From Fibrobacterota bacterium (lineage in GTDB: Bacteria > Fibrobacterota > Fibrobacteria > UBA11236), in assembly GCA_043753995.1 (NCBI GenBank), contig JAYUVP010000087.1, positions 1 to 13,560 on the forward strand: 13,560 nt of DNA, read 5' to 3'. A model generated the notes under the pieces. The model did no database searches and had not been told where the DNA came from. It saw only the letters and a list, made by a program, of their open reading frames with translations. Shown here piece after piece: positions 1 to 13,560 of the stretch. The translations under genes were made by a program, and so were the position numbers. Positions within the stretch are counted from its first letter, which is position 1; every line of letters begins with the position of its first letter.

Positions 1-241
1 GTCGATTTACAGGGCTTCGATTCCACTTCTGAATTCTTCGTTCAGAGGCGAAATTCCCGCTCCTTTTTCCTCGCTCATTTCAACTCTCAAAGAGTCTCGC
101 GCCGCTGGGGCTGCGAGCCGTTTTCTTCGTGACCGGCTTGTCTTTCGACCGCCGCGTCATTCTCAAAACGGGAGAGCAAACTTATCTACTTGAATCGGAA
201 GTGGCAAGGGTTTTAAGGCAACATTTTTGAAAGACTTACAA

Positions 242-338
242 CTATTAACAGAGAGTGCACAATTGTGGATAAGTTACCCACAGTGACTCTCAAAGTTTTG
301 AAAAACAGGCCAAATTCCTTAGCGCTGCATGTGGATAA
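242..338. promoter_or_regulatory. DnaA-box cluster (candidate oriC or DnaA-binding locus)
   Basis: TGTGGATAA (reverse complement of consensus TTATCCACA) at 264-272 and 330-338; TTACCCACA (1 mismatch) at 274-282, back-to-back with the first; degenerate CTATTAACA at 242-250; AT-rich tract at about 205-250; no convincing ORF in 1-318. Confidence 0.55.
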
Positions 339-1182
339 AACGTGGATTTCCGGACCAGTCTTTTTCTGGACCGCTAAAAACCCAATTCATGCCGGCGATT
401 TTTTCCATCAAGATGGGGATTTGGGGGGGCGAAGATTCGATCCAGAGGTGTCCGCCGGGTTTTAAACGGGGGAAAGCCTGCTGAATGAGGAGCCAAGGCA
501 GCTCCCAACCCTGTTCGCCGCCATACAAGGCCAAATCGGGATCCCAGTCGCGCACCTCGGGTTGAAGGCTAGGCTTTTCGTGACGGCCTATATACGGAGG
601 ATTGGAGATGATGAGGTCGAATTGGATGTCGGGGGGAAGGGGCTGAAATAGCGAGCCTGCATAGAACAGCTGAAAGGGAAGGTTTTGGTTTCGGGCATTT
701 TCGCAGCAGAGTTCAAGCGCGGGGGGTGACGCCTCGGTTCCGTAAACTTGCAGGTTACTGCGCTCTTTGAGGAGGCTGAGAGCGATGGCGCCGGTGCCGA
801 GTCCGATATCGAGGGCGATGAGGCCGTCACCGGGTGGCAAGCTGCGCAGGGCCAGGTCGACAAGCACTTCGGTTTCGGGGCGCGGGATGAGGGCGCGGGA
901 ATCGACTTTGAGTTGCAATTCGCGAAAGGGCCAGTTGCCGAGCAAATGCTGTAGGGGCTCGCGCAAGCCGCGGCGACGGACGAGGTCGCGGCATTTTGTG
1001 AGTTCGGGTTCGGTGAGCGGTCGATCGAAGTTGAGATAGAGGTCGAGGCGTTTCATGTGGAGCGCATGGGCTAAAAGAATTTGCGCGTCGAGGCGGGCAT
1101 TGGGTATGCCCTTTTGTTTAAAGTAGTCGGCGGTCTTATTGAGGACTTCGAGTACGGTGGACGTCGCAGCGGGATCACTCAC
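319..1182 (-). CDS. prmC: Release factor glutamine N5-methyltransferase PrmC (HemK)
   Basis: 287 aa; N-terminal '[11 protein letters not shown]', '[13 protein letters not shown]', '[12 protein letters not shown]', SAM-binding '[12 protein letters not shown]', catalytic 'SNPPY'. GTG start overlaps the prfA stop (GTGA), giving the canonical prfA-prmC pair. Confidence 0.97.
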
Positions 1183-2270
1183 ATTAAATCCTGACGCTCT
1201 AAGGCGCGAAGCTTCTCGGCATTGGCTTCCATGCCGAGGGCGTCGATGAGTTCCTCGATGGCGCCATGCATGACGGCGTCGAGCTTATAAAGGGTGAGTC
1301 CGACGCGATGATCGGTGACGCGGCCCTGCGGGAAATTGTAGGTGCGGATTTTGGCGCTGCGATCGCCGGTGCCAACCTGGGCCTTGCGCGTGGCGGCCTC
1401 TTTGGCTTCTTGCTCGCTCAGCCTTTTGTCGAGCAATTTGGACTTGAGCACATTCATGGCCTTGGCGCGATTCTTGTGCTGGCTGCGTTCGTCCTGGCAG
1501 GCGACGACAATGCCGCTGGCGATATGGGTGATGCGCACGGCGGAATCGGTTTTGTTGATGTGCTGCCCACCGGAGCCTCCGGCGCGGAAGGTGTCGACGC
1601 GAATGTCTTCGTCCTTGATGACGATGTCATCGACTTCGTCGGCGACGGGCATGATGACCACGGTGGCGGCCGATGTATGCACGCGGCCTTGGGTTTCGGT
1701 GTCAGGCACGCGCTGCACGCGATGCACGCCGCTTTCGTATTTGAGCGTGCCATAGGCTCCGGGGCCGGAAACTTCGGCGACCACTTCTTTATAGCCGCCC
1801 ATGGTGCCCTCGTTTTCATCGAGCACGGTGAAGCGCCAGCGCCTGGACTCGCAGAAATACTTGTACATGCGGAAGAGGTCGCCCGCGAAGAGGCTGGCCT
1901 CGTCACCACCCGTGCCAGCGCGTATTTCGATGATGGCATCGCGCTCGTCGGTTTTCTCTTTGGGGATCAGGGCGAACTTGAGATCTTGCTCAAGGCCGGG
2001 CATGGCTTCGTCGAGGCGCTTGACTTCGTCTTGTGCCAAGGATTGCATTTCGGGATCGGAGCCGTCGTCGGAGGCTTTTTTCCAATCGGCGCGCTCTTGC
2101 GTGGCGTCGAGATAGGCATGCGCCTTGGTGACGCTGTCGGCGAGGTCCTTGAGCTGTTTATTGAGTGCGACCATTTTTTGCATGTCATTGAGCTGGTCGG
2201 GCCTTTGCAGGGCGCTTTCCATCTCTTGATTGCGTTCGATGAGTTTGCGGGCTTGAGCGTGTAAGTCCAT
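1179..2270 (-). CDS. prfA: Peptide chain release factor 1
   Basis: 363 aa; '[11 protein letters not shown]', '[16 protein letters not shown]' (RF1-type PxT tripeptide), '[16 protein letters not shown]' (GGQ), '[14 protein letters not shown]'. No frameshift. Confidence 0.98.
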
Positions 2271-2349
2271 GGGGCGGGAAAGGTACCAAGGCGCTGGGGA
2301 TGCTGTGGGGTGGCTTTGCTACGAGGCTCCTATCCCCTGGGGCATTGCG

Positions 2350-2460
2350 GGCGCGGCTGATGTTCGGGCCAGATTTGGGCTCGCGGTCCTCGGCTTTGGC
2401 ATTGCCCTGGAGTCTATATCCTGCGGAGCGAGCCCAAATCTGGCCGCTCACCGCCGCGCC
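2350..2460. repeat. Long inverted repeat / hairpin element
   Basis: Perfect 18-bp inverted repeat GGCCAGATTTGGGCTCGC (2367-2384) / GCGAGCCCAAATCTGGCC (2428-2445), extended by GGCGCGGC (2350-2357) / GCCGCGCC (2453-2460). Confidence 0.8.
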
Positions 2461-2486
2461 GGCATTGTTCCGCGGGGGTGGCGATT

Positions 2487-2531
2487 CGAGGGAAGCCCCT
2501 CGCGCGTTGCCGCGCCTTGGGGCTTTCCTCG
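2487..2531. repeat. Stem-loop with GNRA tetraloop on the minus strand
   Basis: CGAGGGAAGCCCC (2487-2499) pairs with GGGGCTTTCCTCG (2519-2531) with one non-Watson-Crick position; inner GCGCG-TTGC-CGCGC reads CGCG-GCAA-CGCG on the minus strand. Confidence 0.7.
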
Positions 2532-2544
2532 CTGGTATCGGGCG

Positions 2545-2890
2545 GGGAAATCCTGCGGGGCAATACGGCAGGGCATTCTGCGGAGCTGTCTAGCAGGGGG
2601 ATCTTGGGGAATCACACAGGGAAATGCTGCGAAGCTGTCAAACAGGGGAGCTACAGGGGGGCGAGGGAAATGCGGTGACGCGAGTCTGCGGGGTAATGCT
2701 ACGAAGCTGTTTGGCGGAGGGCAGGGAAAAGCAGCGGAGTGGTCTAACTAGGAATAAAGAGAAATGTGTGGGGGCGATCTCGCAGAGCATTGTCTCGCGG
2801 AGGCGTTCCAAGGGAGAGCCTTTGGAGAATGCTACGGAGAAAGCGCACTAGGGGGCAAGAAATAGATTGTGGCAATGATTCGCGGAAATC
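2545..2890 (+). repeat. Degenerate direct-repeat array, core GGG(A/C)AATGCT(G/A)CG(G/A)AG
   Basis: Copies near 2545 (gggaaatcctgcgggg), 2571 (gggcattctgcggagctgtc), 2619 (gggaaatgctgcgaagctgtc), 2666 (gggaaatgcggtg), 2691 (gggtaatgctacgaagctgtt), 2724 (gggaaaagcagcggag), 2824 (ggagaatgctacggag), 2871 (ggcaatgattcgcgg). Spacing is irregular. Confidence 0.6.
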
Positions 2891-2899
2891 GTGCTTTGC

Positions 2900-2952
2900 G
2901 AACTTGCAGTGTGTGGTAAGGGTTGAGTTAATTTGGTTGCGCTCTACGTTTG
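2900..2952 (+). promoter_or_regulatory. Candidate promoter(s) of the lipoprotein-sigma operon
   Basis: TTG (2923-2925)-N19-TACGTTTG (2945-2952) matches the Bacteroidota housekeeping TTG-N19-TAnnTTTG pattern, 12 nt before ATG 2965. An overlapping GAAC (2900-2903)-N18-GTTG (2922-2925) resembles generic ECF promoters. Both motifs are short. Confidence 0.3.
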
Positions 2953-2964
2953 AAAGCTCTCGAA

Positions 2965-5283
2965 ATGACGATTCGCAAATTGGCTGGCTTGGCTTTGCTA
3001 GTAACGCTTTGGGCGGGATGCTTTCGCGATGAGGGAATTGTGGATGTCACCAAGCCGGGAAATATTGCTCCGCTGGCGAAGTTTCGCGGGCGGGCTTATA
3101 ACGAGGGCGACACGACCTTGCCCTCCAATCGATTGCTGGAGCTTGTTCATCCGACCATTGCCTTGGTCTATCACTATATAGGTACCAGGGAAAATATTCG
3201 CACCATGACCGAAGGCGTGGTGGCGACTTCACCGCCTTTTGCATTTCAAATCGAGATGAAACAGGCTCCGCCATCCAGCATTCAGCACGATGATGAGGTC
3301 GCCGTTGGATTGTTTTGGCTTTTTTCCGATCGCAATGGGAATGGCAAATTCGATCGCGGTACGCATCCTGAATACGCCAAGAAATTGCAGGAAATCGATT
3401 CTCTGACTCACCTTTATTATCAAGTGAACGATTCTCTGTTGGCTATTAGCGAAATCCATCTTGAAGGCGTGGCTGTGGAGGAAACCACTTTGGTGGGAGC
3501 ACAAGGCCTCACTCTGATTCGGAACGGAATCAAGGTCGACACGGTTTGGCCAGCCATGCCGGCTTTTTCGACCACGGCCATGGATGCACCATTTGCACGT
3601 CAAAAGGTTGTTTTGGCCCAAGACAGGTGGGAGAAGTTTTTTGATTTGAGGAAAAGGTCTAATTCCATAAGCTATTCGGCCATACCCAATGCAGACTATT
3701 CGCTCGAAATGGTGATGCGATATTCCAGGCGACTATTTCCGAAGTCCGGTATGGAAAGCAAATTCAATCAAGGCGTGATTGACTTGGCATTACTTTCGAC
3801 CAAAAAGTCGGTCTTAGCTACGAAATATCAAGGCGAAGCCTTTCAAAAAGGATGGCTCGATTATCCCTATACCGGATTTGAAGAACCGGGCGCCGATTGG
3901 GGTGCAGGGAGAAGCCGAGATCAATTTGTCTTTTTCTTTCCAACATGGAAATCCATTGATATAATGAGGCGCGCAGAAAAAAGCAGTTCTTTCAAAATCG
4001 CGAATGTTCATCAAATCGTACCGGGCTATAATTTGATGGAATGCGATGATCAATACAATTGTCGACGATTGGATGAGAGCGCCGAGATTAAAATCTACAT
4101 GGGGAAATCCGAACTTTATTTCAATCCGCCTTCTGTAACCAAGCCCTTTGCCTTACCCACAGTCGATTCGACGCTATGGATTAAAAACGTTGACGTTGAG
4201 GGGACTTATCCATTTCAGCCGGGTATTGATTTCTCGGTCCAAAAAGTTGGTGCCGATTTTTGGTTGGATGCGGCATTATTCGGAATGACTCGGCTGCAAA
4301 TGGTGGACAGCGTGCGCGGAGTTGGTATGGGTCTCGCTATGCAAATCCAATTCGTGTCAAATGAAAAGCATGAAGTCGAAAAAATGATTTTGGATTGGAA
4401 AGGCGAACGCTATGTCGCGGTGAAAACATCTAACCGAATCAGCGCAGGTAGATCGGAAAACGTGACAAACCATGCTCAAGCACAGGAAAGTGAATTAAGT
4501 ACTGGCATCACGGTATCCCTGAAGCAAAGCTATCGGTGGTATGGACTGGACACTTTGAAATTTTCGGAAGCATCCTCCAAATCGGTTTGGCTGAGTGGCA
4601 AGGGCATTCCGAAGCAAAAATTCGTGGCGGTTGATTCAAACACTTTGATTTCTCAATTCAGCGGCATTGAATTGAAATGGCGGCGCAAATCGGATCAAAT
4701 GGAAGGGGAATGGTATTTATTGACGGGCGGTACAGAATATCGCATTCCACCGATTTTCTTAATGGGCACCCAAAACGATACTGCGGGTCTGGGCGCATAC
4801 GGTTTGATACAGGATGTACAGGGAACAGCAAGAGAAACCTTTGTCGATTTTCAGGGTAAACCAAGATTTTCTTGTGCCGAGGATTCGCTTTATTTGGTCA
4901 ATGGTGATTCCGGATTACGACGCAATCTGCCGGTTCAGCGAAACGATCAAATTGCTTTGGAAGGGGACGGCGAATTTGAGATTGAAGTTCCCGTGGATAG
5001 TTCCTCTGATAGCCTTAGCATAACCCTTGATTTCTGTGGAGCAAAAAACTCGGGCAAACAAGCAGCCTTAATGCGCGTGCTTTGGAAATCCGATTCGGCT
5101 GATTCGTGGTCGGAGATGATGCCCAGTTTTTGGCTTCCGGCCCTTTCGAATGGGTCTCGCAAAATGCACCTCCACTTCGCCACTCCCTTGGGTCGAATAT
5201 TGGGGTTCAAGTTTGAAAATTTGAGCCAACCAGGAATAACTCCTCTCTTGTCTCTCGATCGTTATCGAATTTATTCAAAATGA
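2965..5283 (+). CDS. Large multidomain lipoprotein of unknown function with a Ca-binding-like loop and two DUF3471-like repeats
   Basis: ORF track starts at TTG 2950; ATG 2965 gives MTIRKLAGLALLVTLWAG-C (basic N-region, hydrophobic core, lipobox). 'FSDRNGNGKFD' is a Dx[DN]x[DN]G-like loop. Two approx. 80-aa beta-rich segments ('VEGTYPFQPGIDFSV...GERYVAVK' and 'LKQSYRWYGLDTLKF...GTEYRIP') resemble DUF3471 by eye. Stop overlaps the sigma start (ATGA). Confidence 0.8.
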   Translation: MTIRKLAGLALLVTLWAGCFRDEGIVDVTKPGNIAPLAKFRGRAYNEGDTTLPSNRLLELVHPTIALVYHYIGTRENIRTMTEGVVATSPPFAFQIEMKQAPPSSIQHDDEVAVGLFWLFSDRNGNGKFDRGTHPEYAKKLQEIDSLTHLYYQVNDSLLAISEIHLEGVAVEETTLVGAQGLTLIRNGIKVDTVWPAMPAFSTTAMDAPFARQKVVLAQDRWEKFFDLRKRSNSISYSAIPNADYSLEMVMRYSRRLFPKSGMESKFNQGVIDLALLSTKKSVLATKYQGEAFQKGWLDYPYTGFEEPGADWGAGRSRDQFVFFFPTWKSIDIMRRAEKSSSFKIANVHQIVPGYNLMECDDQYNCRRLDESAEIKIYMGKSELYFNPPSVTKPFALPTVDSTLWIKNVDVEGTYPFQPGIDFSVQKVGADFWLDAALFGMTRLQMVDSVRGVGMGLAMQIQFVSNEKHEVEKMILDWKGERYVAVKTSNRISAGRSENVTNHAQAQESELSTGITVSLKQSYRWYGLDTLKFSEASSKSVWLSGKGIPKQKFVAVDSNTLISQFSGIELKWRRKSDQMEGEWYLLTGGTEYRIPPIFLMGTQNDTAGLGAYGLIQDVQGTARETFVDFQGKPRFSCAEDSLYLVNGDSGLRRNLPVQRNDQIALEGDGEFEIEVPVDSSSDSLSITLDFCGAKNSGKQAALMRVLWKSDSADSWSEMMPSFWLPALSNGSRKMHLHFATPLGRILGFKFENLSQPGITPLLSLDRYRIYSK

Positions 5284-5840
5284 ATGCGCCATTGATCCCA
5301 AGCCTAGAAGAGGTTTTCAAATCGCATTCGAGCATGGTCTATCGCATTTGCCGACGTTATGTCAAAGGTGAGGAAGATGCTCAGGATTTGGCGCAAGACG
5401 TTTTTTTAAAGCTTCATGATAAACTGGCATCGTTTCAGGGGCATTCTTCGCTGACGACCTGGCTTTATCGCGTAACCGCCAATATTTGCATGGATCATAT
5501 TCGGTCGAGAAAATTTCAAGGTATGCTGGATATTGACGACTTGGATGAAATCGTCACACATAACCTTTCGGCTTCGGGAAATGCCGAATTGGCTAAAATC
5601 GACCTGGAAAGGTTATTGAAGCATGTGCAACCCAAAACCCGCGAACTTTTATTTTTGGTGCTGGCCGAAGGGCTAAGCTATACCGAAGCAGGGGAAATGG
5701 TCGGCATGGAAAAATCAGCCGTGGCGAAACAAGTCACCCGGTTTTTGGCCAGCCGAAGCGGCAAGGTGCAAGCAGGAAAACCAGGCATTTTTAGCGCAAT
5801 AATCACCATTGTCCACGCTACCCTGATCGGACGCGTCTAA
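5280..5840 (+). CDS. ECF-type RNA polymerase sigma-70 factor
   Basis: 186 aa; region 2 'VYRICRRYV..EEDAQDLAQDVFLKL...FQGHSSLTTWLYRVTANICMDHIR'; region 4 'RELLFLVLAEGLSYTEAGEMVGM..SAV'; no region 3. Confidence 0.95.
   Translation: MNAPLIPSLEEVFKSHSSMVYRICRRYVKGEEDAQDLAQDVFLKLHDKLASFQGHSSLTTWLYRVTANICMDHIRSRKFQGMLDIDDLDEIVTHNLSASGNAELAKIDLERLLKHVQPKTRELLFLVLAEGLSYTEAGEMVGMEKSAVAKQVTRFLASRSGKVQAGKPGIFSAIITIVHATLIGRV
5809..5840 (+). promoter_or_regulatory. Candidate ECF promoter, copy 1 (TTGTCCACG-N16-CGTCTAA), overlapping the 3' end of the sigma gene
   Basis: TTGTCCACG 5809-5817 and CGTCTAA 5834-5840; the same elements and spacing recur at 8251-8282; 5 nt upstream of anti-sigma ATG 5846. Confidence 0.65.
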
Positions 5841-5845
5841 ATCGT

Positions 5846-6649
5846 ATGCTCAAGTCGCGCCCGCCATCGAATTCTCCCGAAGAGCCAATGAATTCCGGAT
5901 TCTCTTTATTTCAAATTGAGCGCTTTCTTTTGGGAGAGCTTTCCCCTGCCGAGCAAGGCGAAATCACCCGTGCCGCAGAAGGCAATCCGAAGCTGGCAGC
6001 CTATATTCAAAGGGCTCGGGTGTGGACCGAAGAGTCTAAGCAATTGAAGCTTCCACCTAGCCCGGTAGCTCGTAAGCGGGGCGACTGGGAATGGCTTGCG
6101 GGGATGAAAAATCGCTTGCAGGGATGGGTGAGCGCCTGGGAAAGGCCAGCCTGGGCCATGCCTGGATTAGCCATGGCCTCGGTGATTTTGGTGATCGGTG
6201 TTTTTTCGATCACCACCTTTCAGGGCAATCCTAATAATTCCGTGAAAACCTTGAGCCCCAAGGGTGGCCTTGGCGCCGATATGTCCATCGAGCATAAAAC
6301 GGTGAGCTTTACTGCAGGTTCGGATATCGCTGTAAGTCCAGGGGATACCTTGCGGATTTCCTATCGCAGCTCGGATTCCCTGTTTTTCCAGCTTTGGAAT
6401 AAAGATTCGCATGGTGAATTTAGCCGCTTGCATCAAGCCGAGGGAGAGTCCCTGCCCGCTTCGGCCAAGTGGAAGCATAGTGGAAAAAGTTTGGTCTTGG
6501 ATCAGGGTGAAAGCCCTCGCCAACTCGTGCTGATTTGGGCTGGCTCCAAGTCCGAGCTTTTTGATTTGGGAAAAAGATTAAGCGATGGTGGGAAAATCCC
6601 AGAAGACAAACGCGCTGTATTTCATATACACTCCACTAAGACTCAATGA
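5846..6649 (+). CDS. Putative transmembrane anti-sigma factor with a C-terminal DUF4384-like periplasmic domain
   Basis: Immediately follows the ECF gene. N-terminal 'IERFLLGELSPAEQ' is typical of anti-sigma domains but lacks the HxxxCxxC zinc ligands. One TM helix 'WAMPGLAMASVILVIGVFSITTF' (about 6152-6220), linker 'TLSPKGG', then 'VSPGDTLRISYRSSDSLFFQLWNKDSHG' (DUF4384-like by eye). Alternative start ATG 5888. Confidence 0.8.
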   Translation: MLKSRPPSNSPEEPMNSGFSLFQIERFLLGELSPAEQGEITRAAEGNPKLAAYIQRARVWTEESKQLKLPPSPVARKRGDWEWLAGMKNRLQGWVSAWERPAWAMPGLAMASVILVIGVFSITTFQGNPNNSVKTLSPKGGLGADMSIEHKTVSFTAGSDIAVSPGDTLRISYRSSDSLFFQLWNKDSHGEFSRLHQAEGESLPASAKWKHSGKSLVLDQGESPRQLVLIWAGSKSELFDLGKRLSDGGKIPEDKRAVFHIHSTKTQ

Positions 6650-8235
6650 AAGTCGCTTTTTTCATAGGACTTTTTCTAGTAGCCTGGGTGTCGGCGAATA
6701 TTTCCTCGCCCATCGAAAGATACGCCATCGTCATCGGTAATAATCGCGGCCTGCCCAAGGAGAGGCCATTGAAATACGCAGCCAAGGATGCTGCAGAAAT
6801 GGCCCGAGCTTTGATTCGCGGCCAGGCCTTTGAAGATGACCGAGTATATTGCTTGCAAAATCAGCCACTTGAAAACATTCGTAATTCTATTTCGGAACTT
6901 CGTGGGCGTTTATTCGAAATCAAAAAAACCGGTAAAAAGACGTTGGTGATGGTGTATTTCAGCGGCCATGGCAGTAAAGGGGGACTGCATATCGAGGGTC
7001 GGCTGTGGAATCGGGAAGACTTTGTGGCCGCCTTCGACGAAATTCAAGGCGATTTAAAAATCTTGATCTTGGATGCTTGCGAATCAGGAGACTTTTTGCG
7101 CAGCAAAGGCATGAAATTAATTGATGAACGAATCATCGAACAAGAGGATTTACTGGGTACGCATGGCCGAATTCTTTTAAGCGCCTCCGCCAAGGGTGAA
7201 GCCGCCCAGGAAAGCGAAGATTATCGCGGCGCCGTTTTCACCCATCATTTGCTGAACGGAATTCGTGGCCTCGCAGATTATGACCAAGACGGGCAGATTC
7301 GCTTGCTCGAAGCTTTCGACTATGCCCAAACCGCCACGAGAAAAGAAAACAATTTCGGTGAAAGCGCTATGCAATCACCATCTTTTGATTTCGACGTAGT
7401 CGGCGAGAACGATCCCGTATTGGCCCGAATGGAAAAGAAAGACGTCCAGGTGCAATTCGTGGGATTAGATGCGGGCACCTTACGCGTCTTCGCCTATCCT
7501 TACAAGGAGGTGGCCTATCATCTTTATCTCACGGGAAGAAAAACTGCCAATATATCCATTCCCTCCGGACGCTATCTCTTTGCGGTGGGGGAAGCAGAAA
7601 AGTGGCTAGTGGCTGAATCAGATCTGCGTTGGGGGGCGCAAACTCAAATCCGAGCAGAAAGTTTTCGCCAAAAGCCTCGTCCGTTCTTTTCGCCGAAAGG
7701 TGGTGTGCCCGCCACGCTTTGGCAAGAACAGGTTGTTTTGCCATCCTTGCGGAGAGTCGCGGCCGTCGATCCTATCAACTTGTTTGAACTTGCTTATTCT
7801 CTGGGGCAAGCGGCGCATGATTTGACGCTCACGGTTGGATATGGCAAAGGCCGCGAAAGCCTGAGCACATGGGGCCTAAGCCAGCAAATGACGCAGTATC
7901 GCTTAGGATTGGGCAGCGCTTGGCCGATTTTCACGCGCTGGGGTTTTCAAACTTCGCTTGGCGCAGAAGCTTCGGTGAATATTGTGCAGCAGCGTGTGCA
8001 TGATAGTCGCCTGGACAATACTGACCTCGCTAGCGGCGGGCTTCGCAGCGATGCCGAGCGAAGCGCCTTGGTTTACGGTATCAGTTTGCCTGTTGGCGCA
8101 AGCTTTGATTTGCCCTGGCGAATGCGCCTGGCTGGGTCTTGGGGACCCGCGGCCTATACTTACAGGGAAGCGGCCGAAGGCCGCGTTTACAAGCTCCGCC
8201 CCGAGTTTAGGCTCGGCGGCGGACTGCGGTTTTAA
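6646..8235 (+). CDS. Exported caspase-family (peptidase C14) protease with a C-terminal outer-membrane beta-barrel-like domain
   Basis: Signal peptide MKVAFFIGLFLVAWVSA; 'RYAIVIGNN', 'LKYAAKDA', 'YFSGHG' (His108, 6967-6969), 'ILDACESG' (Cys145, 7078-7080), 'AAQESEDYRGAVFTHHLLNGIRGLADYDQDGQIRLLEAFDY'; amphipathic beta-strands ending in 'EFRLGGGLRF' with terminal Phe. ATGA overlap with the anti-sigma gene. Confidence 0.92.
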   Translation: MKVAFFIGLFLVAWVSANISSPIERYAIVIGNNRGLPKERPLKYAAKDAAEMARALIRGQAFEDDRVYCLQNQPLENIRNSISELRGRLFEIKKTGKKTLVMVYFSGHGSKGGLHIEGRLWNREDFVAAFDEIQGDLKILILDACESGDFLRSKGMKLIDERIIEQEDLLGTHGRILLSASAKGEAAQESEDYRGAVFTHHLLNGIRGLADYDQDGQIRLLEAFDYAQTATRKENNFGESAMQSPSFDFDVVGENDPVLARMEKKDVQVQFVGLDAGTLRVFAYPYKEVAYHLYLTGRKTANISIPSGRYLFAVGEAEKWLVAESDLRWGAQTQIRAESFRQKPRPFFSPKGGVPATLWQEQVVLPSLRRVAAVDPINLFELAYSLGQAAHDLTLTVGYGKGRESLSTWGLSQQMTQYRLGLGSAWPIFTRWGFQTSLGAEASVNIVQQRVHDSRLDNTDLASGGLRSDAERSALVYGISLPVGASFDLPWRMRLAGSWGPAAYTYREAAEGRVYKLRPEFRLGGGLRF

Positions 8236-8250
8236 AGCGCGAAAAGATTT

Positions 8251-8282
8251 TTGTCCACGATGGCGGGGTCGGCGCCGTCTAA
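8251..8282 (+). promoter_or_regulatory. Candidate ECF promoter, copy 2 (TTGTCCACG-N16-CGTCTAA)
   Basis: TTGTCCACG 8251-8259 and CGTCTAA 8276-8282; intergenic, just after the caspase stop; TCGG sits at the same spacer position as in copy 1. Confidence 0.65.
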
Positions 8283-8369
8283 TCCTTTACAACCCGCGTG
8301 ACGGACCGAAGGTGTTTCCGACAAAAACCTGCTTTTGGTAATGCCCGCCAGAACATCCACGAGAGACGT

Positions 8370-9242
8370 ATGACAAATATTTTTCGACTTCTGTCAATCG
8401 CTCTGACCTTTAATGCCTTGACCCATGTTGCTCACTCAGCATCGAATCAATGCTACTATAGCAGAGAACATTTTCTTGGGATGGGGAGCACATACACCCT
8501 CGACTCCACCGTCATCATTAAAAGAAAAAATCAGGAACTTGTAAGTCGTATTGCTTTTACATATAAAATAAACGAAGACACTATTTATTCCTCCTATAAA
8601 GTAACCCGCCCCGATGATTCAATACTTGTTGATTTGGCCGGTTCATTTGCTTTCAAAAACCGAGTATGGCTTTTTACAGACACGTCAGACCACGATACCA
8701 ATCTTATCGTGAATACCACCGCCACGTATTTTAATGATAAATACAAAATAGACTCTATCGTTGAAATGCGTATTTCCAGTACGGCAGAGTTGGATGAAAA
8801 AGAAATTCATTACAATACTGATTCGGCCCAAGTCCAATACAAAATTTATCCAAATCGCCCTCCAATTATAGATTCCACAGTATTTAATCAAGCCGGCCTT
8901 GTTAAATATTCCATTGAGGGTGACTCCATTCACGCGATTGACACATGCATTTCATTAGATACCATTTGCGTTTGTCATGGTGACAGACAAGATCGCCGTT
9001 TGGAATATCAAGTCATCAATGATCAAATTCAGTATGAACTTGAATTTTTTGTTGGGTATGAATCAGAAATACGTCACTTCTGGAGCAACAAGCAATCGAG
9101 CATTCATGGGTTGAATTCAAAGAGACGCGCCGTAACGCAATTCGACAGAACAAAGCGATTTACTCTCGATGGACGACAAGTTTACATCTCCAATGTGCCC
9201 CGTATCCCTAAATCACTCACTTGGCCACGAAAAGCTCAATGA
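8370..9242 (+). CDS. Secreted hypothetical protein with a basic C-terminal 'FTLDGR' tail
   Basis: ORF is open from GTG 8298; ATG 8370 gives a signal peptide (MTNIFRLLSIALTFNALTHVAHS-A). Beta-rich D/T/Y body; Lys/Arg-rich C-terminus containing FTLDGRQV; AT-rich codon usage. Confidence 0.75.
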   Translation: MTNIFRLLSIALTFNALTHVAHSASNQCYYSREHFLGMGSTYTLDSTVIIKRKNQELVSRIAFTYKINEDTIYSSYKVTRPDDSILVDLAGSFAFKNRVWLFTDTSDHDTNLIVNTTATYFNDKYKIDSIVEMRISSTAELDEKEIHYNTDSAQVQYKIYPNRPPIIDSTVFNQAGLVKYSIEGDSIHAIDTCISLDTICVCHGDRQDRRLEYQVINDQIQYELEFFVGYESEIRHFWSNKQSSIHGLNSKRRAVTQFDRTKRFTLDGRQVYISNVPRIPKSLTWPRKAQ

Positions 9243-9886
9243 CAAATCAATTGCGTTTCGGAAATGGGCGCGACTTTTCACAGATTAAAAGTTTAATAGC
9301 AACACTTACGCTATTCCTTGCTTCCAGCCTTTGGGCCGAAGGTATTAGCTCACAACTTAATTTTACGATTGGACCCGCTTTTGGAATTGCCCATGCCGTC
9401 GATGGAAAGCATGGTGGCATGGCTGCGGGAATCGTGTTTTTGGCATCCACCAGTCACCTTGAGATGGGCTCGTCCATTCAATTCATTGGTGAAATAACCA
9501 ACCCATTGAGCCATCACAAAACCGATCCTTCCGAGAGATATCTGAGCACTGAGTTTATTTCAGGACTAAAGCTTCCGATAAATAAAGTGATTTTTTCTGG
9601 AGGGCTTGGAGGCGGACTGCTTTGGGGTAAAGCACGCACTGAACTTTTTCGTAGCGATACGAATTGTGTGATGGGATTCTTTTCCATAGAATGCTTGGAT
9701 ACACCAGAAGTCACTAATCGTTACTATTCTCAAAATATCAGTACGATTTCCGTTTCTCCCTATGCTCGCGTAGATTTTCAACTAAAGCGATTTTTCGGAT
9801 TAGGAGTGATGTATAAAGCAATTTTAAATGATAAACAAGGTCTTGGCGTGTTTTCGATTTTATGGTATTATGGTAATAGGCAATAG
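9239..9886 (+). CDS. Hypothetical exported protein, probable small outer-membrane beta-barrel
   Basis: ATG 9239 overlaps the upstream stop (ATGA). Hydrophobic segment 'LIATLTLFLASSLWA-E'; alternating Gly/aromatic strands ('VIFSGGLGGGLLWG', 'FFGLGVMYK', 'FSILWYYG'). Confidence 0.65.
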   Translation: MTNQLRFGNGRDFSQIKSLIATLTLFLASSLWAEGISSQLNFTIGPAFGIAHAVDGKHGGMAAGIVFLASTSHLEMGSSIQFIGEITNPLSHHKTDPSERYLSTEFISGLKLPINKVIFSGGLGGGLLWGKARTELFRSDTNCVMGFFSIECLDTPEVTNRYYSQNISTISVSPYARVDFQLKRFFGLGVMYKAILNDKQGLGVFSILWYYGNRQ

Positions 9887-10400
9887 TGTCATAGTTGATT
9901 TAAGGAAAAAATCTGCTCATTATGCCCTCGGATTCTTGCTCACTATCTGCGGATGCGATGTCATTGATCCTCAGGATCATGGGCCTATCGATACCCAATA
10001 TTTATGGCAAGCTTGGGAAACCACGGGTTGGCATGGAGACCTGAGGGATTTTCCAGCAGGCACAGTAATCGTGGAGCGATATCACAACGATTCGACAGCA
10101 TTTGAAAATACAGGAACTGGGCCAGAATATCATATCCCGCGATATTGCAGACTTTATCACTGCAATCCTGATAACCCTGACACCTGCGTCTGGTACCACG
10201 ACAACTATTTTCATATTGAATCGGATACAGTATTGAATTTTTCTATTCCAACCATTAATGATAAGCGCACCATTTTAAGGTTGACGGACTCGAACTTCAC
10301 TTACCTCGATCGATCAATGCGCGCCCACTTTATCCCAAGCAAACGCGTTTTGGCAGACACCAATGGCGGCGATTTGACCATTCATTCCTCCGGTGAGTGA
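9870..10400 (+). CDS. Hypothetical lipoprotein, lipocalin-like
   Basis: ORF is open from 9828; ATG 9870 is the nearer start. 'RKKSAHYALGFLLTICG-C' lipobox; 'YLWQAWET' and 'TILRLTDSNFTY' resemble the GxW and ILxLTxxxL motifs of bacterial lipocalin-like domains. Start uncertain. Confidence 0.65.
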   Translation: MVIGNSVIVDLRKKSAHYALGFLLTICGCDVIDPQDHGPIDTQYLWQAWETTGWHGDLRDFPAGTVIVERYHNDSTAFENTGTGPEYHIPRYCRLYHCNPDNPDTCVWYHDNYFHIESDTVLNFSIPTINDKRTILRLTDSNFTYLDRSMRAHFIPSKRVLADTNGGDLTIHSSGE

Positions 10401-10428
10401 AAGGCCCGCGAAGTAACTCCGGTGGGGA

Positions 10429-10544
10429 GGTCGAGGCCGACAAGGCGGAAGCGGCGGTGGTGGACTGCGGAGAAAGACCCGTCACCGACGCGTTACGTGG
10501 GCAGGCCGAGACCGGGGGAGGCGGAGCCTCGCCCCGAAAAAAAA
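10429..10544. other. GC-rich multi-stem palindromic element between convergent genes
   Basis: GGTC-GA-GGCC (10429-10438) / GGCC-GA-GACC (10504-10513); inner CGGTGGTGG / CCGTCACCG; then hairpin CGGGGGAGGC-GGA-GCCTCGCCCCG (10513-10536) followed by A8. Confidence 0.5.
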
Positions 10545-10568
10545 GCTGCGAAGAAAAATAAGATGTGC

Positions 10569-11843
10569 CTATAAAGCTACGCGCTTCTTCTTCTCCGCCC
10601 GCCCGTCCAAACGCCGGTCGGGCATCAGGCCTAGGGCTTCCAAGCCATAGCGGTTGCGGAGGGAGCTGCGGCGCTGGGGCAGAATGACGCTCCCCGTGGC
10701 GCCATCCTTAAAGGTAACGCGAAAGAGACTGCCATTCGACGTGCCGCGGTTGATATAGTACATGACGCCATCCGCTCCGAATTTGATGTCGACGGGGGCA
10801 CCCGCTTCGGTAGCGAAATCGGAGACGGTTGTTGGATTTTCAATGTCCAATACTTTTATCCAACTGGTATTGTAGTCGGCGAAGAAGAATTTGCGATGAA
10901 AGCTGGATGGGAAATTGCGGGTTCCGGTGAACCCTGTGCCGGTGGGGGTATAGAAAGAGGCCGCGATAATGCAGCCGCTTTTATAGGCATGGATGGCGGG
11001 TTTGAATGTGCCGACTATGCCTGTGGTATTGGTCGGCACGGTATAGCCTTCGGCGCGTCCATAGCCATAATTGTGGCCTGCCGATAATTCATTCACTTCT
11101 TCGGAGGCATCACCAACTTCACAACCGAACATACGGCCTGTGACCTTGTCGATGGAAAAGGTGAAGGTATTGCGCATGCCTGCGGTGTATATCGCCTGGG
11201 CCTTGCCTGTGGTTTGGGTCATGAAGGGATTATCGGAGGGTATGCTGCCGTCCTCATTGAGGCGCAGGATTTTTCCGAGGACCATGGTCATGTCCAGGGC
11301 GCTGTTCATGGCGCGATTGCCCGAGGAGACATAAAGCTTGCCGTCATTGCCGAAATGAATGGCGCCGCCATCGTGATTGTCGCCGGTGCCGGTCGGGATT
11401 TCGAAAATCACTTGCTCGCCGTCGACACCACCCACCGCGGTATCCCCGTCGGCCTTGAAGCGGCTCACGCGATTGGTTTTGGCGGGTAGGGTGTAATAGA
11501 CATAGACCCAATTGGAGTCCGGGAATTTAGGATGAAAGGTGACACCCAATAATCCCTGTTCGCTAGATGTCGAGACGCTCAGCTTGAGGAAAGGCTTGGT
11601 GAGCAATTGGTTGTTTTTATACACGCGCAAGGAGCCGCTTTTGCTGCATATGAAAATTCGGCCGTCGGGGGCGATTTCCATGGCTGTGCCATCCAGGTTG
11701 GTGGCTAGGGAGGTTTCCGTAAAGCTCTTGTCGGTGAAGGTGGCTGCCGACGTCAAAACAAAGGTCCCTATCAGAATCGCAAAGGCCATTTTCAAGGCAG
11801 CGGGTGGGGTACTTGGCATGATGGACTCCAGGAAAGTTTTCAT
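10569..11843 (-). CDS. PQQ-dependent sugar dehydrogenase (glucose/sorbosone dehydrogenase family, beta-propeller), secreted
   Basis: 'MEIAPDGRIFI', 'SEQGLLGVTFHPKF', 'NHDGGAIHFGNDGKLYVSSG', 'GKILRLNEDGSIPSDNPF', 'GMRNTFTFSID', 'GHNYGY', 'FFADY', 'PVDIKFGADGVMYY'. The ORF-track start at 11942 lies in a terminator; ATG 11843 or 11819 precedes the signal peptide ('MAFAILIGTFVLTSAA'). Confidence 0.9.
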   Translation of the reverse strand: MKTFLESIMPSTPPAALKMAFAILIGTFVLTSAATFTDKSFTETSLATNLDGTAMEIAPDGRIFICSKSGSLRVYKNNQLLTKPFLKLSVSTSSEQGLLGVTFHPKFPDSNWVYVYYTLPAKTNRVSRFKADGDTAVGGVDGEQVIFEIPTGTGDNHDGGAIHFGNDGKLYVSSGNRAMNSALDMTMVLGKILRLNEDGSIPSDNPFMTQTTGKAQAIYTAGMRNTFTFSIDKVTGRMFGCEVGDASEEVNELSAGHNYGYGRAEGYTVPTNTTGIVGTFKPAIHAYKSGCIIAASFYTPTGTGFTGTRNFPSSFHRKFFFADYNTSWIKVLDIENPTTVSDFATEAGAPVDIKFGADGVMYYINRGTSNGSLFRVTFKDGATGSVILPQRRSSLRNRYGLEALGLMPDRRLDGRAEKKKRVAL

Positions 11844-11932
11844 ATCACTATAGCGCAAAAGGGTTTTGAGTTGCTGGCGCTTTTCGGCGGGACTTGAGCT
11901 GATTTCGGCACCTGATGACTCACCGTCTGGGC

Positions 11933-11965
11933 AAAAAAACACCCACCGTCCTTACGGACGGTGGG
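11933..11965 (-). terminator. Rho-independent terminator
   Basis: Minus strand reads CCCACCGTCC-GTAA-GGACGGTGGG-TGTTTTTTT: perfect 10-bp stem, GNRA loop, U7 tail. Confidence 0.85.
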
Positions 11966-12032
11966 CTCGTTTCGGTAACGGCGCTTGGGGAGGAGAAGTG
12001 AGGAGGGAAGGCGCCGCCCCGTTCCGACTCTC
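11933..12032 (-). ncRNA. Candidate approx. 100-nt small RNA with an anti-Shine-Dalgarno (CCUCC) loop
   Basis: Minus strand: stem (TCGGAACG..CGGCGC / GCGCCGTTACCGA) encloses the pyrimidine loop CTTCCCTCCTCACTTCTCCTCCCC, followed directly by the terminator; CGTCTAA lies 5 nt upstream (12038-12044). Confidence 0.45.
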
Positions 12033-12116
12033 ACAAGTTAGACGGTATCCCCAGCAAAACCCAGGGGTAGATATGTTTTCAAATTCAGCCCCCTGATTGC
12101 GGGCCACTTGGCTATT

Positions 12117-12452
12117 TCACGCAAATACGCGAAGCGAGCGGCAATAATCGCGTAAAATCGAGAGCCCACCGGTATAGCCCAAATCTCGCAGCTCCATATA
12201 GAGCCGCATGATTTTGCCCTGGGGATTGGCCTCAATGCGGGCATTTACCAGGGGAATATAGGGTTGCAGCTTGCGGCTGCCGGAGGGACGGCCTCGGCGT
12301 TTTCCCGGTTGAAACACGCGTTGATGCACGTGATTGTAAACCGTCCGACGGGAATAGCCCGTGGTGGCGGCAATGCGGGTTTGGGTCCAGCCTTGGCGAT
12401 GCAATTCCAAAATGCTCTGATGATGCTCGGGGAGCTCTGTTTGCGGGTTCAT
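12117..12452 (-). pseudogene. IS21-family IstA transposase N-terminal (HTH) fragment, or a domesticated HTH protein
   Basis: 111 aa; 'ILELHRQGWTQTRIAATTGYSRRTVYNHV' HTH and 'RKLQPYIPLV...RLYMELRDLGYTGGLSILRDYCRSLR' match the IstA N-terminus. The ORF stops before the DDE domain; no istB and no terminal repeats seen. Confidence 0.75.
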
Positions 12453-12570
12453 ACCGATAAGACGAAAAATGTTGTGTACATGTCTCCGCTTTTTCGATTT
12501 TTTTTCTTTCCGTCGAAGTTTGCCCTAAGCCGGGGGCTGAAGGGAGTAGCGAGCTTGTTATTGTTGTCTC

Positions 12571-13233
12571 ATGACTTTGCCCTGCAAGCTTGCTCCGAGC
12601 ATTTTAAACGCTGATTTTTCCCGCCTGGGAGAGGCGGTGACCGCCGTGGAGAAAGGCGGCGCCGACTTATTGCATTTCGATGTGATGGACGGCCATTTCG
12701 TCCCCAATATGTCCTTTGGGCCCGTGGTATTGCAGGCCCTGAAGCCGCGTACTCGCCTGCCACTGGACTGCCATCTCATGGTGCGCGATCCCGAGCGCTT
12801 TGTGGAATGGTTTGCCGATGCGGGTGCTGACTCCATTACGGTGCATGCCGAATCGACCGTGCATCTCGACTCTTTGTTGCGACGAATACGTCAGCGCGGT
12901 TGCCGTGTGGGCGTGAGCCTGAACCCCGCCACACCGCTATCCGTTTTAGAATGGGTATTACCTGATATCGACATGGTTTTGCTGATGTCGGTGAATCCGG
13001 GCTTCGGTGGGCAAAAGTTCATCCCTTATAGCTTAGAGCGGGCCAAGCAACTGCGCGCCATGTGCGAGGCTCGGGGACTTCAGACCGATATTCAAATGGA
13101 CGGTGGTATCAATTTGAATAATCTCGGTGACTTACGAAATGCTGGCGTGAATGTTTTTGTCGTGGGAACGGCGATTTTCCACAGCGAGAATCCGGTCGCA
13201 GCCACCCAGGCATTCAAGGCTGCCTTGGTTTGA
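12571..13233 (+). CDS. rpe: Ribulose-phosphate 3-epimerase
   Basis: 220 aa; 'LAPSILNADF', 'HFDVMDGHFVPNMSFG', 'DCHLMV', 'LMSVNPGFGGQKFI', 'MDGGIN'. Confidence 0.98.
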   Translation: MTLPCKLAPSILNADFSRLGEAVTAVEKGGADLLHFDVMDGHFVPNMSFGPVVLQALKPRTRLPLDCHLMVRDPERFVEWFADAGADSITVHAESTVHLDSLLRRIRQRGCRVGVSLNPATPLSVLEWVLPDIDMVLLMSVNPGFGGQKFIPYSLERAKQLRAMCEARGLQTDIQMDGGINLNNLGDLRNAGVNVFVVGTAIFHSENPVAATQAFKAALV

Positions 13234-13237
13234 TTGG

Positions 13238-13560
13238 CTAATCAGAAAAGGGTGCCGTATTCAAGATCAATCCAAAGTTCAACCAGAGCTTGGAATTGTC
13301 CAAATCCCCTGCTTGATACAAAGGCAGGGAAATCCCCGTTTGGAATTGCCCTTTCACGGCTTTATAGCCAGCCCGAAAGGTGAATGCCGGCTCTAGAAAA
13401 AAGCCCCAATGCTGGCCGGGATAGACCAAGGGTATTTCATTGCCGTCCCATGCCTTAAAATCAAAATATCGAAATCCGGAAACTCGCAAGGACCCGGCGC
13501 GATCAAAGATTCGACCTCGCTTTCCCCAATGGCCTTGTAAAAAAATTTCATAATACTGGC
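13238..13560 (-). CDS. C-terminal part of a hypothetical protein (outer-membrane beta-strand-like), truncated by the window edge
   Basis: Frame stays open from 13558 (QYYEIFLQGHWGKRGRIFDRAGSLRVSGFRYF...FFLEPAFTFRAGYKAVKGQFQTGIS...LWLNFGLILN...) to the stop at 13238; convergent with rpe, 4-nt gap. Confidence 0.7.
   Translation of the reverse strand, partial: QYYEIFLQGHWGKRGRIFDRAGSLRVSGFRYFDFKAWDGNEIPLVYPGQHWGFFLEPAFTFRAGYKAVKGQFQTGISLPLYQAGDLDNSKLWLNFGLILNTAPFSD

Follow-up and report, generated by a model that had tools for sequence, protein, structure and literature searches.

Why do a predicted anti-sigma factor and the secreted caspase-like protease encoded next to it carry the same pentapeptide, Ser-Pro-Lys-Gly-Gly (SPKGG)? 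The two genes lie in a stretch of 13,560 nucleotides (nt) from a Fibrobacterota bacterium (assembly GCA_043753995.1, contig JAYUVP010000087.1, positions 1-13,560, forward strand), which is the window analysed here at its full length. The original prediction, made from the letters of the DNA, read the shared peptide as a cleavage code, by which the protease would cut both itself and the anti-sigma factor and thereby set a sigma factor free. We found that the pentapeptide identity is of a kind expected by chance and that, as judged from alignments of homologues, it nevertheless points to a real and very strongly conserved element common to the two proteins. By the same alignments, this common element is the dipeptide Lys-Gly (K-G), present in three flexible segments, one in the anti-sigma factor and two in the protease, and SPKGG is not the unit. 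The conserved K-G in both linkers suggests that the protease cuts there to switch on the sigma factor. The features on which the analysis turns are as follows.

2950-5283, + strand: o777, a predicted large lipoprotein, 777-codon open reading frame (ORF) (from its translation; its stop overlaps the sigma start)
5280-5840, + strand: sigma-70 family sigma factor of the extracytoplasmic function (ECF) type, 186 amino acids (Pfam, NCBIfam)
5846-6649, + strand: single-pass anti-sigma factor, 267 amino acids from the first ATG (translation, AlphaFold2 (AF2) model)
6161-6220, + strand: predicted transmembrane helix of the anti-sigma factor, residues 106-125 (hydrophobic helix in the AF2 model)
6254-6268, + strand: anti-sigma S137-P-K-G-G141, with the core K139-G140 at 6260-6265 and the proposed scissile bond between K139 and G140
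6275-6634, + strand: predicted periplasmic immunoglobulin-like (Ig-like) beta-sandwich of the anti-sigma factor, residues 144-263 (AF2 model)
6646-8235, + strand: secreted C14 metacaspase-like protease, 529 amino acids (Pfam, AF2 model)
6967-6969, + strand: catalytic His108 of the protease in S-G-H-G, codon cat (invariant in 14 of 14 orthologues)
7072-7080, + strand: D143-A-C145 of the protease, C145 being the catalytic Cys (D143 and C145 invariant in orthologues)
7105-7110, + strand: K154-G155 of the protease, proposed autoprocessing site at the start of a disordered loop of the p20-p10 type (conservation, and predicted local distance difference test (pLDDT) of the model)
7690-7704, + strand: protease S349-P-K-G-G353, proposed release site, with the core K351-G352(-G353) at 7696-7704

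The shared pentapeptide

The pentapeptide is present in both proteins, encoded as agc ccc aag ggt ggc in the anti-sigma gene and as tcg ccg aaa ggt ggt in the caspase gene, and four of the five codons differ in the way originally described. The AF2 models also bear out the locations that had been predicted, with the anti-sigma site outside the transmembrane helix and the caspase site between the middle beta domain and the barrel, and the related RSKG is found in the protease, its K154 nine residues past the catalytic C145.

As a unit of conservation, the pentapeptide did not hold up. Upon shuffling the anti-sigma and caspase sequences 20,000 times, we observed at least one common 5-mer in 12.2% of the shuffles (P = 0.12), and a common 5-mer also occurs in 9 of the 66 pairs among the 12 proteins of the window. 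Common 4-mers between the anti-sigma factor and the caspase numbered 6, with a mean of 2.15 expected (P = 0.03). The S and the P of SPKGG vary freely, being unconserved at the anti-sigma and caspase sites alike in the homologue sets. The pentapeptide alone is no more than chance and the case therefore rests on the homologues, and what the window's anti-sigma site and linker site have in common outside K-G(-G) is most readily taken as a coincidence.

Two further observations concern this comparison. The anti-sigma K-G-G-L is repeated directly past the catalytic His of the caspase (K111-G-G-L114 at 6973-6984, in GHGSKGGL), where it is unconserved in orthologues and looks coincidental. K-G as the remnant of a common domain was considered and rejected, since a profile-profile comparison of the anti-sigma factor with the caspase gave no homology (probability 0.2%).

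Conservation of Lys-Gly in homologues

Going by genome titles, the relatives examined are Fibrobacterota (Fibrobacteres or Fibrobacteria metagenome-assembled genomes, MAGs), with a few distant ones in MAGs labelled Proteobacteria, Deltaproteobacteria and Myxococcota. Caspase matches at E ≤1e-20 are found in 46 of the 61 related genomes, often several in each, and five are found in the window's own genome. The gene-order counts were taken from the 53 unique caspase ORFs in all fetched loci. An anti-sigma homologue lies directly upstream in 42 of these 53, at a gap of -25 to +154 nt, and 38 of the 42 caspase-anti-sigma loci have the sigma gene too, the other four having less than 1 kb of upstream sequence. 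The 11 caspase ORFs with no anti-sigma gene upstream comprise L041 (a copy without the N-terminus), L003, L019 (from the unpublished genome G021), L025 (293 nt available) and seven distant homologues.

When aligning 15 anti-sigma orthologues that are 15-59% identical to the window protein, we find that the only invariant columns are S20, K139 and G140. Among the 42 unique anti-sigma homologues beside caspase genes, 40 cover the K-G site, and in these P1 is K in 39 and R in one, P1' is G in all 40, and the flanks are variable (P2 being A, S, I or P, and P3 being R in 18). A profile search of 1.84 billion representative proteins returned 2310 anti-sigma homologues at E ≤1e-3, 92 of them at E ≤1e-30. 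In the best 150 of these 2310, a set that shares members with the profile's own input sequences and comes without genome context, six do not cover the site, and the remainder have K in 144 of 144 and G in 143 of 144. K139 and G140 are the two best-conserved columns of this set, followed by S20 (92%) and D167 (91%).

The protease displays the same dipeptide at two positions. Across 14 caspase orthologues that are 27-38% identical, K154, G155, K351 and G352 never vary, and G353 is conserved in at least 90%. When the set is widened, 46 of 51 sequences have K at the post-Cys site, 50 of 51 have G, and 38 of 51 have R at P3; at the linker site, 35 of 41 have K, the other 6 have R, and all 41 have G. 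The linker K-G is kept even in paralogues with quite different C-terminal parts. Conservation in homologues, on which the original prediction had made its motif depend, was thus found for the K-G core.

These counts also bear on the explanation that the whole is pure coincidence, with no functional motif behind it. The 5-mer statistics and the unconserved S and P speak for that explanation; the near-absolute Lys of the anti-sigma factor, in the caspase-linked homologues and in the best 150 alike, and the 14 of 14 at both caspase sites speak against it. By the alignments, coincidence is already refuted for the K-G core and remains tenable just for the second G and the S-P flank, and as an account of the whole we find it barely credible.

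Enzyme type and fold of the protease

The protease is laid out as a signal peptide, a caspase domain (~22-262), a middle beta-sandwich (~266-344), a flexible linker and an 8-stranded barrel (~357-529). It matches Pfam Peptidase_C14 (PF00656) at 1.2e-13, with 51.7 bits against a cut-off of 21.4, over residues 25-211, and the EACC1-associated caspase model (NCBIfam NF047832) scores 53.5 bits, below its cut-off of 140 bits. In the AF2 model (mean pLDDT 76.6), an N-terminal hydrophobic helix is read as the signal peptide, the middle beta domain ends near residue 344, and eight long strands lie between 362 and 528. The pLDDT falls below 50 at residues 153-172 and 349-359, and both K-G sites open a flexible stretch. 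The K154 loop takes the place of the p20-p10 linker, joining the strand that ends in the catalytic Cys to the one after it.

Upon structural comparison with VIA-align, the caspase fold matched AtMC4 first (Z 20.5, root-mean-square deviation (rmsd) 2.8, 209 aligned residues), followed by legumain-type enzymes, MALT1 (Z 18.9), caspases (caspase-8, Z 18.8) and glycosylphosphatidylinositol (GPI) transamidase. Foldseek with the same model returned caspases at E ~1e-7, and the nearest solved relatives by sequence are metacaspases 9, 1 and 4 only (E 5e-5 to 2e-3). H108 (in SGHG), C145 (in DACESG), D143 and several other acidic residues are invariant in the 14 caspase orthologues, and almost all of the 53 wider homologues have the H108 and C145 dyad. 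Going by these sequences, the protease is a metacaspase-like C14 enzyme with a His-Cys dyad.

The residue two positions before the nucleophile is Asp, giving D-A-C and not Q-A-C, an equivalence drawn by motif position only. Caspase-3 has Gln161 with a basic pocket, other C14 members have an acidic pocket, and the characterised non-caspase C14 enzymes all cut after Arg or Lys (PMC5756287). D143 in D-A-C, taken together with this C14 precedent, makes a basic P1 specificity of the protease plausible. This part of the original prediction is in keeping with an enzyme that is metacaspase-like by sequence and fold and has Asp where Asp-specific caspases have Gln.

The operon and the predicted compartments

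All four genes from o777 through the sigma factor and the anti-sigma factor to the caspase are on the + strand, and their neighbouring starts and stops overlap or almost touch. The sigma protein matches Pfam Sigma70_r2 (1.1e-18), Sigma70_r4_2 (above its cut-off) and NCBIfam TIGR02937 sigma70-ECF (88.2 bits, cut-off 42.9), and the anti-sigma gene, starting at 5846, lies directly downstream of the sigma gene, ending at 5840, on the same strand. The best explanation of the locus is a four-gene envelope-signalling module that consists of the lipoprotein o777, an ECF sigma factor, a single-pass anti-sigma factor and a barrel-tethered periplasmic C14 protease.

The AF2 model of the anti-sigma factor (mean pLDDT 80.4) contains N-terminal helices at 21-66 (three-helix), a hydrophobic helix at 106-125 and the sandwich at 144-263, and its N-terminal helical part is the putative sigma-binding part. 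K139 lies 14 residues outside the transmembrane helix, between the residues 127-135, disordered with pLDDT below 50, and the first beta-sandwich strand, which begins at 144. The model predicts that K139 sits on the periplasmic side of the helix.

We found no Pfam or NCBIfam family for the window's anti-sigma protein, its periplasmic domain included, and no FecR, TPR or CHAT match in Pfam. One of the 15 aligned homologues matches Pfam zf-HC2 (6.9e-7), and the window protein has no such match. In Foldseek the sandwich resembles generic Ig-like, RhoGDI-like or carbohydrate-binding-like folds only (E ~2e-4, TM score 0.3-0.5). The gene call on record begins at M15, in contrast to the first ATG used for the 267-residue form.

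For the C-terminal part of the protease, VIA-align with the predicted model gave the N-terminal barrel of OprF (residues 357-529, Z 16.8, rmsd 2.2, 133 aligned residues), and then OmpW (Z 15.9) and NspA (Z 15.8); the C-terminal F529 is invariant in the 14 caspase orthologues. This part is accordingly predicted by the model to be a small 8-stranded outer-membrane barrel. A signal peptide together with an OprF/OmpW-like barrel places the protease module in the periplasm, and the protease module and K139 of the anti-sigma factor are predicted to share that compartment.

Proposed cleavage relay

In the relay that we propose, a periplasmic C14 protease specific for Lys, which its barrel keeps at the outer membrane, would cut between Lys and Gly. 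It would process itself at K154, which would be its activation or maturation, and at K351, which would release it from the outer-membrane tether. It would then remove the periplasmic domain of the anti-sigma factor at K139, acting as the site-1 protease, and the short anti-sigma stub would become a substrate of the genome's M50 RseP-type site-2 protease, which would set the sigma factor free. The genome does encode an M50 site-2 protease (PF02163, 221.1 bits, contig C109); the family is near-universal (14 of 14 control genomes) and its presence is only permissive. The alignments and models show the arrangement of the genes and how widely it is kept, the catalytic dyad, the conservation and loop position of the three K-G sites, and, as predictions, the folds and topology; the specificity, the cleavage, the order of events and the signal of this relay are what we infer. 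We give an even chance to the proposition that the ECF sigma/anti-sigma pair has in the caspase its own dedicated, Lys-specific site-1 protease.

Loci without the module provide a contrast. Weak anti-sigma homologues (25-41 bits) sit between hemB-like (ALAD) and gyrB/parE-like genes, as identified by Pfam on three upstream ORFs and one downstream ORF. When 20 regions with an anti-sigma match and with no caspase match on record were fetched, two missed the site, two had K-G and 16 belonged to this hemB-parE group. Across the 16 loci and an own-genome copy, the Lys is replaced by S, A, V, Q, N or E, so that a basic residue is found in 0 of 17, and the G-G after the replaced Lys is kept; the neighbour genes of the 17 gave no sigma match and no caspase match. 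Of the two K-G regions, L074 carries a sigma gene and, where its contig ends, part of a caspase; the other is L083. On the side of the protease, the Myxococcota caspase homologues with no anti-sigma neighbour (L059-L062) have no post-Cys Lys. In these alignments the Lys goes with the signalling module. The orphan paralogue copies are located on contig C37:7975-8730 of the own genome and in loci within L068-L082, L084 and L087.

We also compared the flanks of the sites at P5-P2, P2' and P3' in same-locus pairs, using 5000 permutations of the pairing in which shared ancestry is ignored. Anti-sigma and post-Cys flanks resemble each other over all pairs (n = 39, P = 0.003) and in the distant paralogues (n = 18, P = 0.0014), where both sites read approximately [TL]-R-x-K-G. 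Since the permutation ignores shared ancestry, this positive signal is only a hint, and the apparent co-variation of anti-sigma and post-Cys flanks is confined to the distant paralogues.

Several observations, the chance level of the pentapeptide in the shuffles and across the window's protein pairs among them, weigh against the relay. The anti-sigma and post-Cys flanks of close orthologues do not co-vary (n = 21, P = 0.65), and the co-varying linkers that the original prediction had envisaged were not borne out between the anti-sigma flanks and those of the caspase linker site (all pairs, n = 36, P = 0.41). The Lys of the anti-sigma factor is almost never Arg (1 of 40; 0 of 144), and Arg occurs at the caspase linker in 6 of 41; so strict a Lys might reflect something other than a protease P1. 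Its retention in the orphan clade suggests that the Gly is at least partly structural. The orphan clade is without both sigma factor and caspase and does not tell whether the Lys is linked to the caspase or to sigma signalling, and it is one clade and represents one evolutionary event. L083, which like L071 comes from the unpublished genome G021, has K-G and a sigma gene and no caspase within ~3 kb, and the Fibrobacterota paralogues L003, L019 and L041, which have no anti-sigma gene upstream, retain the post-Cys K-G. Lastly, co-expression from one operon leaves unaccounted for what keeps the protease off its substrate.

Some of these observations fit an explanation in which the K-G is unrelated to the neighbouring protease. 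It would begin or cap the beta-sandwich, for example, or be a site for a housekeeping envelope protease, and the caspase would be among the genes that the sigma factor switches on, or would act in the envelope on different substrates. Regulon members are commonly found within ECF operons. The G-G kept in the caspase-free orphan clade, the K-G retained in L083 and the position of K139 only four residues before the first strand in the AF2 model agree with this. It leaves unexplained, however, the invariant K-G at two disordered loops of the protease, the loss of the Lys exactly in the module-free clade, and the order of anti-sigma factor and then caspase in 42 of 53 loci, including paralogues that are ~25-30% identical. 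We consider it unlikely.

The K-G could also be a docking or pseudosubstrate motif and not a scissile bond, with the anti-sigma linker and the two loops of the protease occupying the active-site cleft or another surface of the caspase. The protease would thereby be held inactive or be tethered to the anti-sigma factor, and signals would pass through binding and release, or through cuts made only in the loops of the protease itself, another protease removing the anti-sigma domain. The conservation and the loop location are the same as under cleavage, and the near-absolute Lys of the anti-sigma factor is stricter than that of the caspase linker. In distant paralogues, phylogeny ignored, the anti-sigma site has flanks similar to those of the cognate post-Cys loop, as would be expected of two segments competing for one site. 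The invariant His-Cys dyad and acidic residues argue instead for an active enzyme, and active C14 enzymes normally cut the basic-P1 sequences that they bind (PMC5756287). A docking role is in our view likewise unlikely. Complex prediction with protease residues 21-348 and anti-sigma residues 126-267 scored 0.01 against a mark of 0.32; run without controls, it counts neither for nor against binding.

A further possibility, which we rate as very unlikely, is that the three K-G sites act together as a spatial switch sensing the condition of the cell envelope, or, in a bolder variant, that the enzyme is a transpeptidase joining proteins. In the spatial switch, the protease may hang on a ~10-residue outer-membrane tether and the substrate bond may stand ~14 residues above the inner membrane, and the two may meet only after self-release at K351 or upon approach of the membranes. 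In the transpeptidase variant, the Lys-Gly bond or the Lys side chain may be used for covalent joining and not for simple cutting; this variant is raised because the fold matches legumain-type ligases and GPI transamidase (Z 17.8-19.3) nearly as closely as proteases and because the Lys of the anti-sigma factor is essentially never Arg.

Gene neighbourhood and paralogous loci

The likely start of o777 is the ATG at 2965, and its lipobox is L-W-A-G-C24, Cys24 of the printed translation. We found no Pfam or NCBIfam family for it, Pfam giving Cap15 below threshold only (E 0.04), and the best protein-atlas score of 0.77 is a lead only. An o777 homologue accompanies the module in 18 unique loci, where it is upstream, downstream or divergent. 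The o777 homologues have no conserved K-G, and the Cys pair C365 and C371 is among their few near-invariant residues. The lipoprotein is a candidate sensor or regulator.

Upon examining the flanks of the module, we observe housekeeping genes, with a prmC-like methyltransferase and a peptide chain release factor (PCRF/RF-1) at 319-2270 on the - strand, and, by Pfam, a GSDH-family dehydrogenase at 10569-11942 and a ribulose-phosphate 3-epimerase at 12571-13233. Three + strand ORFs of 314, 221 and 190 codons follow 3' of the caspase gene at 8298-10400, the first of them with a signal-like N-terminus. None of the three has a Pfam family, the 314-codon ORF has none in NCBIfam either, and they were not seen beside the module in the related loci examined. 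A scan of 2200-8500 for sigma-70-type promoters and terminators gave counts not above those of shuffles; no search for ECF-type promoters was made.

The own genome carries four more caspase paralogues (on C82, C234, C240 and C355; loci L002-L005) of 542-776 codons, which are 25-30% identical over the protease module and have differing C-terminal parts. An anti-sigma gene lies upstream in three of the four, two of them also with a sigma match, and the copy on C234 has neither. On one public contig (L037 and L041) the module is tandemly duplicated: an upstream anti-sigma gene and a 213-codon caspase fragment are followed by a full module, and ~10 kb further on by a caspase copy lacking its first ~70 residues and then another o777 homologue. 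In L016 and L043 (L016, ~100-542) the sigma gene matches in two frames (query 9-63 and 62-155), which suggests a frameshift or a sequencing error. An anti-sigma-caspase fusion in L032 was rejected, the long frame being an overlapping upstream extension, with a separate anti-sigma ORF in another frame.

Comparison with known systems

That regulated proteolysis activates ECF sigma factors is textbook knowledge, and the site-1 protease is known for few families only. Regulated intramembrane proteolysis of anti-sigma factors is carried out by PrsW and RasP on RsiW, and by DegS and RseP on RseA. The steps of the DegS/RseA/RseP cascade are described in PMC10028731. The module resembles these systems in having a single-pass anti-sigma factor acting on an ECF sigma factor and, as modelled, a site-1 cut near the membrane followed by an M50 enzyme. 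It differs from them in that the candidate site-1 enzyme is a clan CD cysteine protease of family C14 and not a serine protease or metalloprotease, that its gene shares the operon and its predicted anchor is in the outer membrane, and that the proposed site is a family-wide invariant K|G.

Closer to the caspase family, DdvA of Myxococcus xanthus is an anti-sigma factor with a periplasmic TPR-CHAT domain, for which a cut in the flexible linker between the transmembrane helix and that domain, before RseP, has been proposed (PMC11506125). In DdvA/DdvS, as here, a periplasmic caspase-family His-Cys domain is coupled to an ECF sigma/anti-sigma pair (PMC11506125). The CHAT domain of DdvA is fused to the anti-sigma factor after TPR repeats and acts, if at all, in trans in a dimer, whereas the protease here is a separate and smaller C14 protein with its own barrel, and the periplasmic part of the anti-sigma factor is a beta-sandwich of ~120 residues only. 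The accessible text of PMC11506125 reports no conserved cleavage motif for DdvA. The window has no fusion of the DdvA type, the protease being a separate gene (6646-8235) and TPR or CHAT Pfam matches being absent.

In craspase (Cas7-11-Csx29), Csx29 (TPR-CHAT) cleaves Csx30 and so relieves the inhibition of CASP-sigma, on evidence from in vitro work and chromatin immunoprecipitation (PMC10028731). A caspase-family protease that cuts a flexible loop of the inhibitor of an ECF-like sigma factor is the feature in common, the cut being in our case a proposal. Craspase is cytoplasmic, RNA-activated and CRISPR-linked, with no strict site sequence; the module here is, by contrast, predicted to act in the periplasm, the window holds no CRISPR genes, and the K-G is invariant.

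The likeness to metacaspases, orthocaspases and MALT1 lies in the fold, the His-Cys dyad, the D-x-C and the predicted post-Cys processing loop, and MALT1 prefers Gly at P1'. Autoprocessing of C14 enzymes between p20 and p10 and their Arg/Lys specificity are described in PMC5756287. Unlike those enzymes, the protease here has a signal peptide, a middle beta-sandwich, a predicted outer-membrane barrel and a coupling to a sigma/anti-sigma pair.

FecA, FecR and FecI, an outer-membrane barrel, an inner-membrane anti-sigma factor and an ECF sigma factor, are encoded together as a trans-envelope relay. The present locus likewise brings an outer-membrane barrel protein together with an anti-sigma factor and an ECF sigma factor, but it has no TonB-dependent transducer and, by Pfam, no FecR domain, and the partner is a protease-carrying 8-stranded barrel. 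CHAT proteins are reported near ECF54 sigma genes (PMC8999054), and EACC2-caspase neighbourhoods are reported to include ECF sigma genes (PMC8195603). In the open-access literature we found no account of an ECF sigma/anti-sigma pair that is followed by a C14 caspase gene and has a conserved K-G, and the supplements of ECF classifications may list one. The module differs from all of the named systems in combining a separate, secreted, barrel-anchored C14 protease with a small anti-sigma factor and a K-G that recurs in the loops of the enzyme.

Implications

In this anti-sigma family (2310 homologues at E ≤1e-3), the best-conserved feature, as read from its best 150 members, is the Lys-Gly of the juxtamembrane linker, and the same Lys-Gly pair occurs in the two processing-type loops of the adjoining secreted metacaspase-like enzyme. 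If the cleavage relay is true, the protease would be the first C14 enzyme to serve in the periplasm as a dedicated site-1 protease encoded within the operon, and the bacterial 'orthocaspases' would gain a defined physiological substrate and a recognisable cleavage code. The link between caspase-family proteases and sigma factors, drawn so far by craspase and by the proposed role of DdvA, would then extend to envelope signalling in Fibrobacterota and some other phyla.

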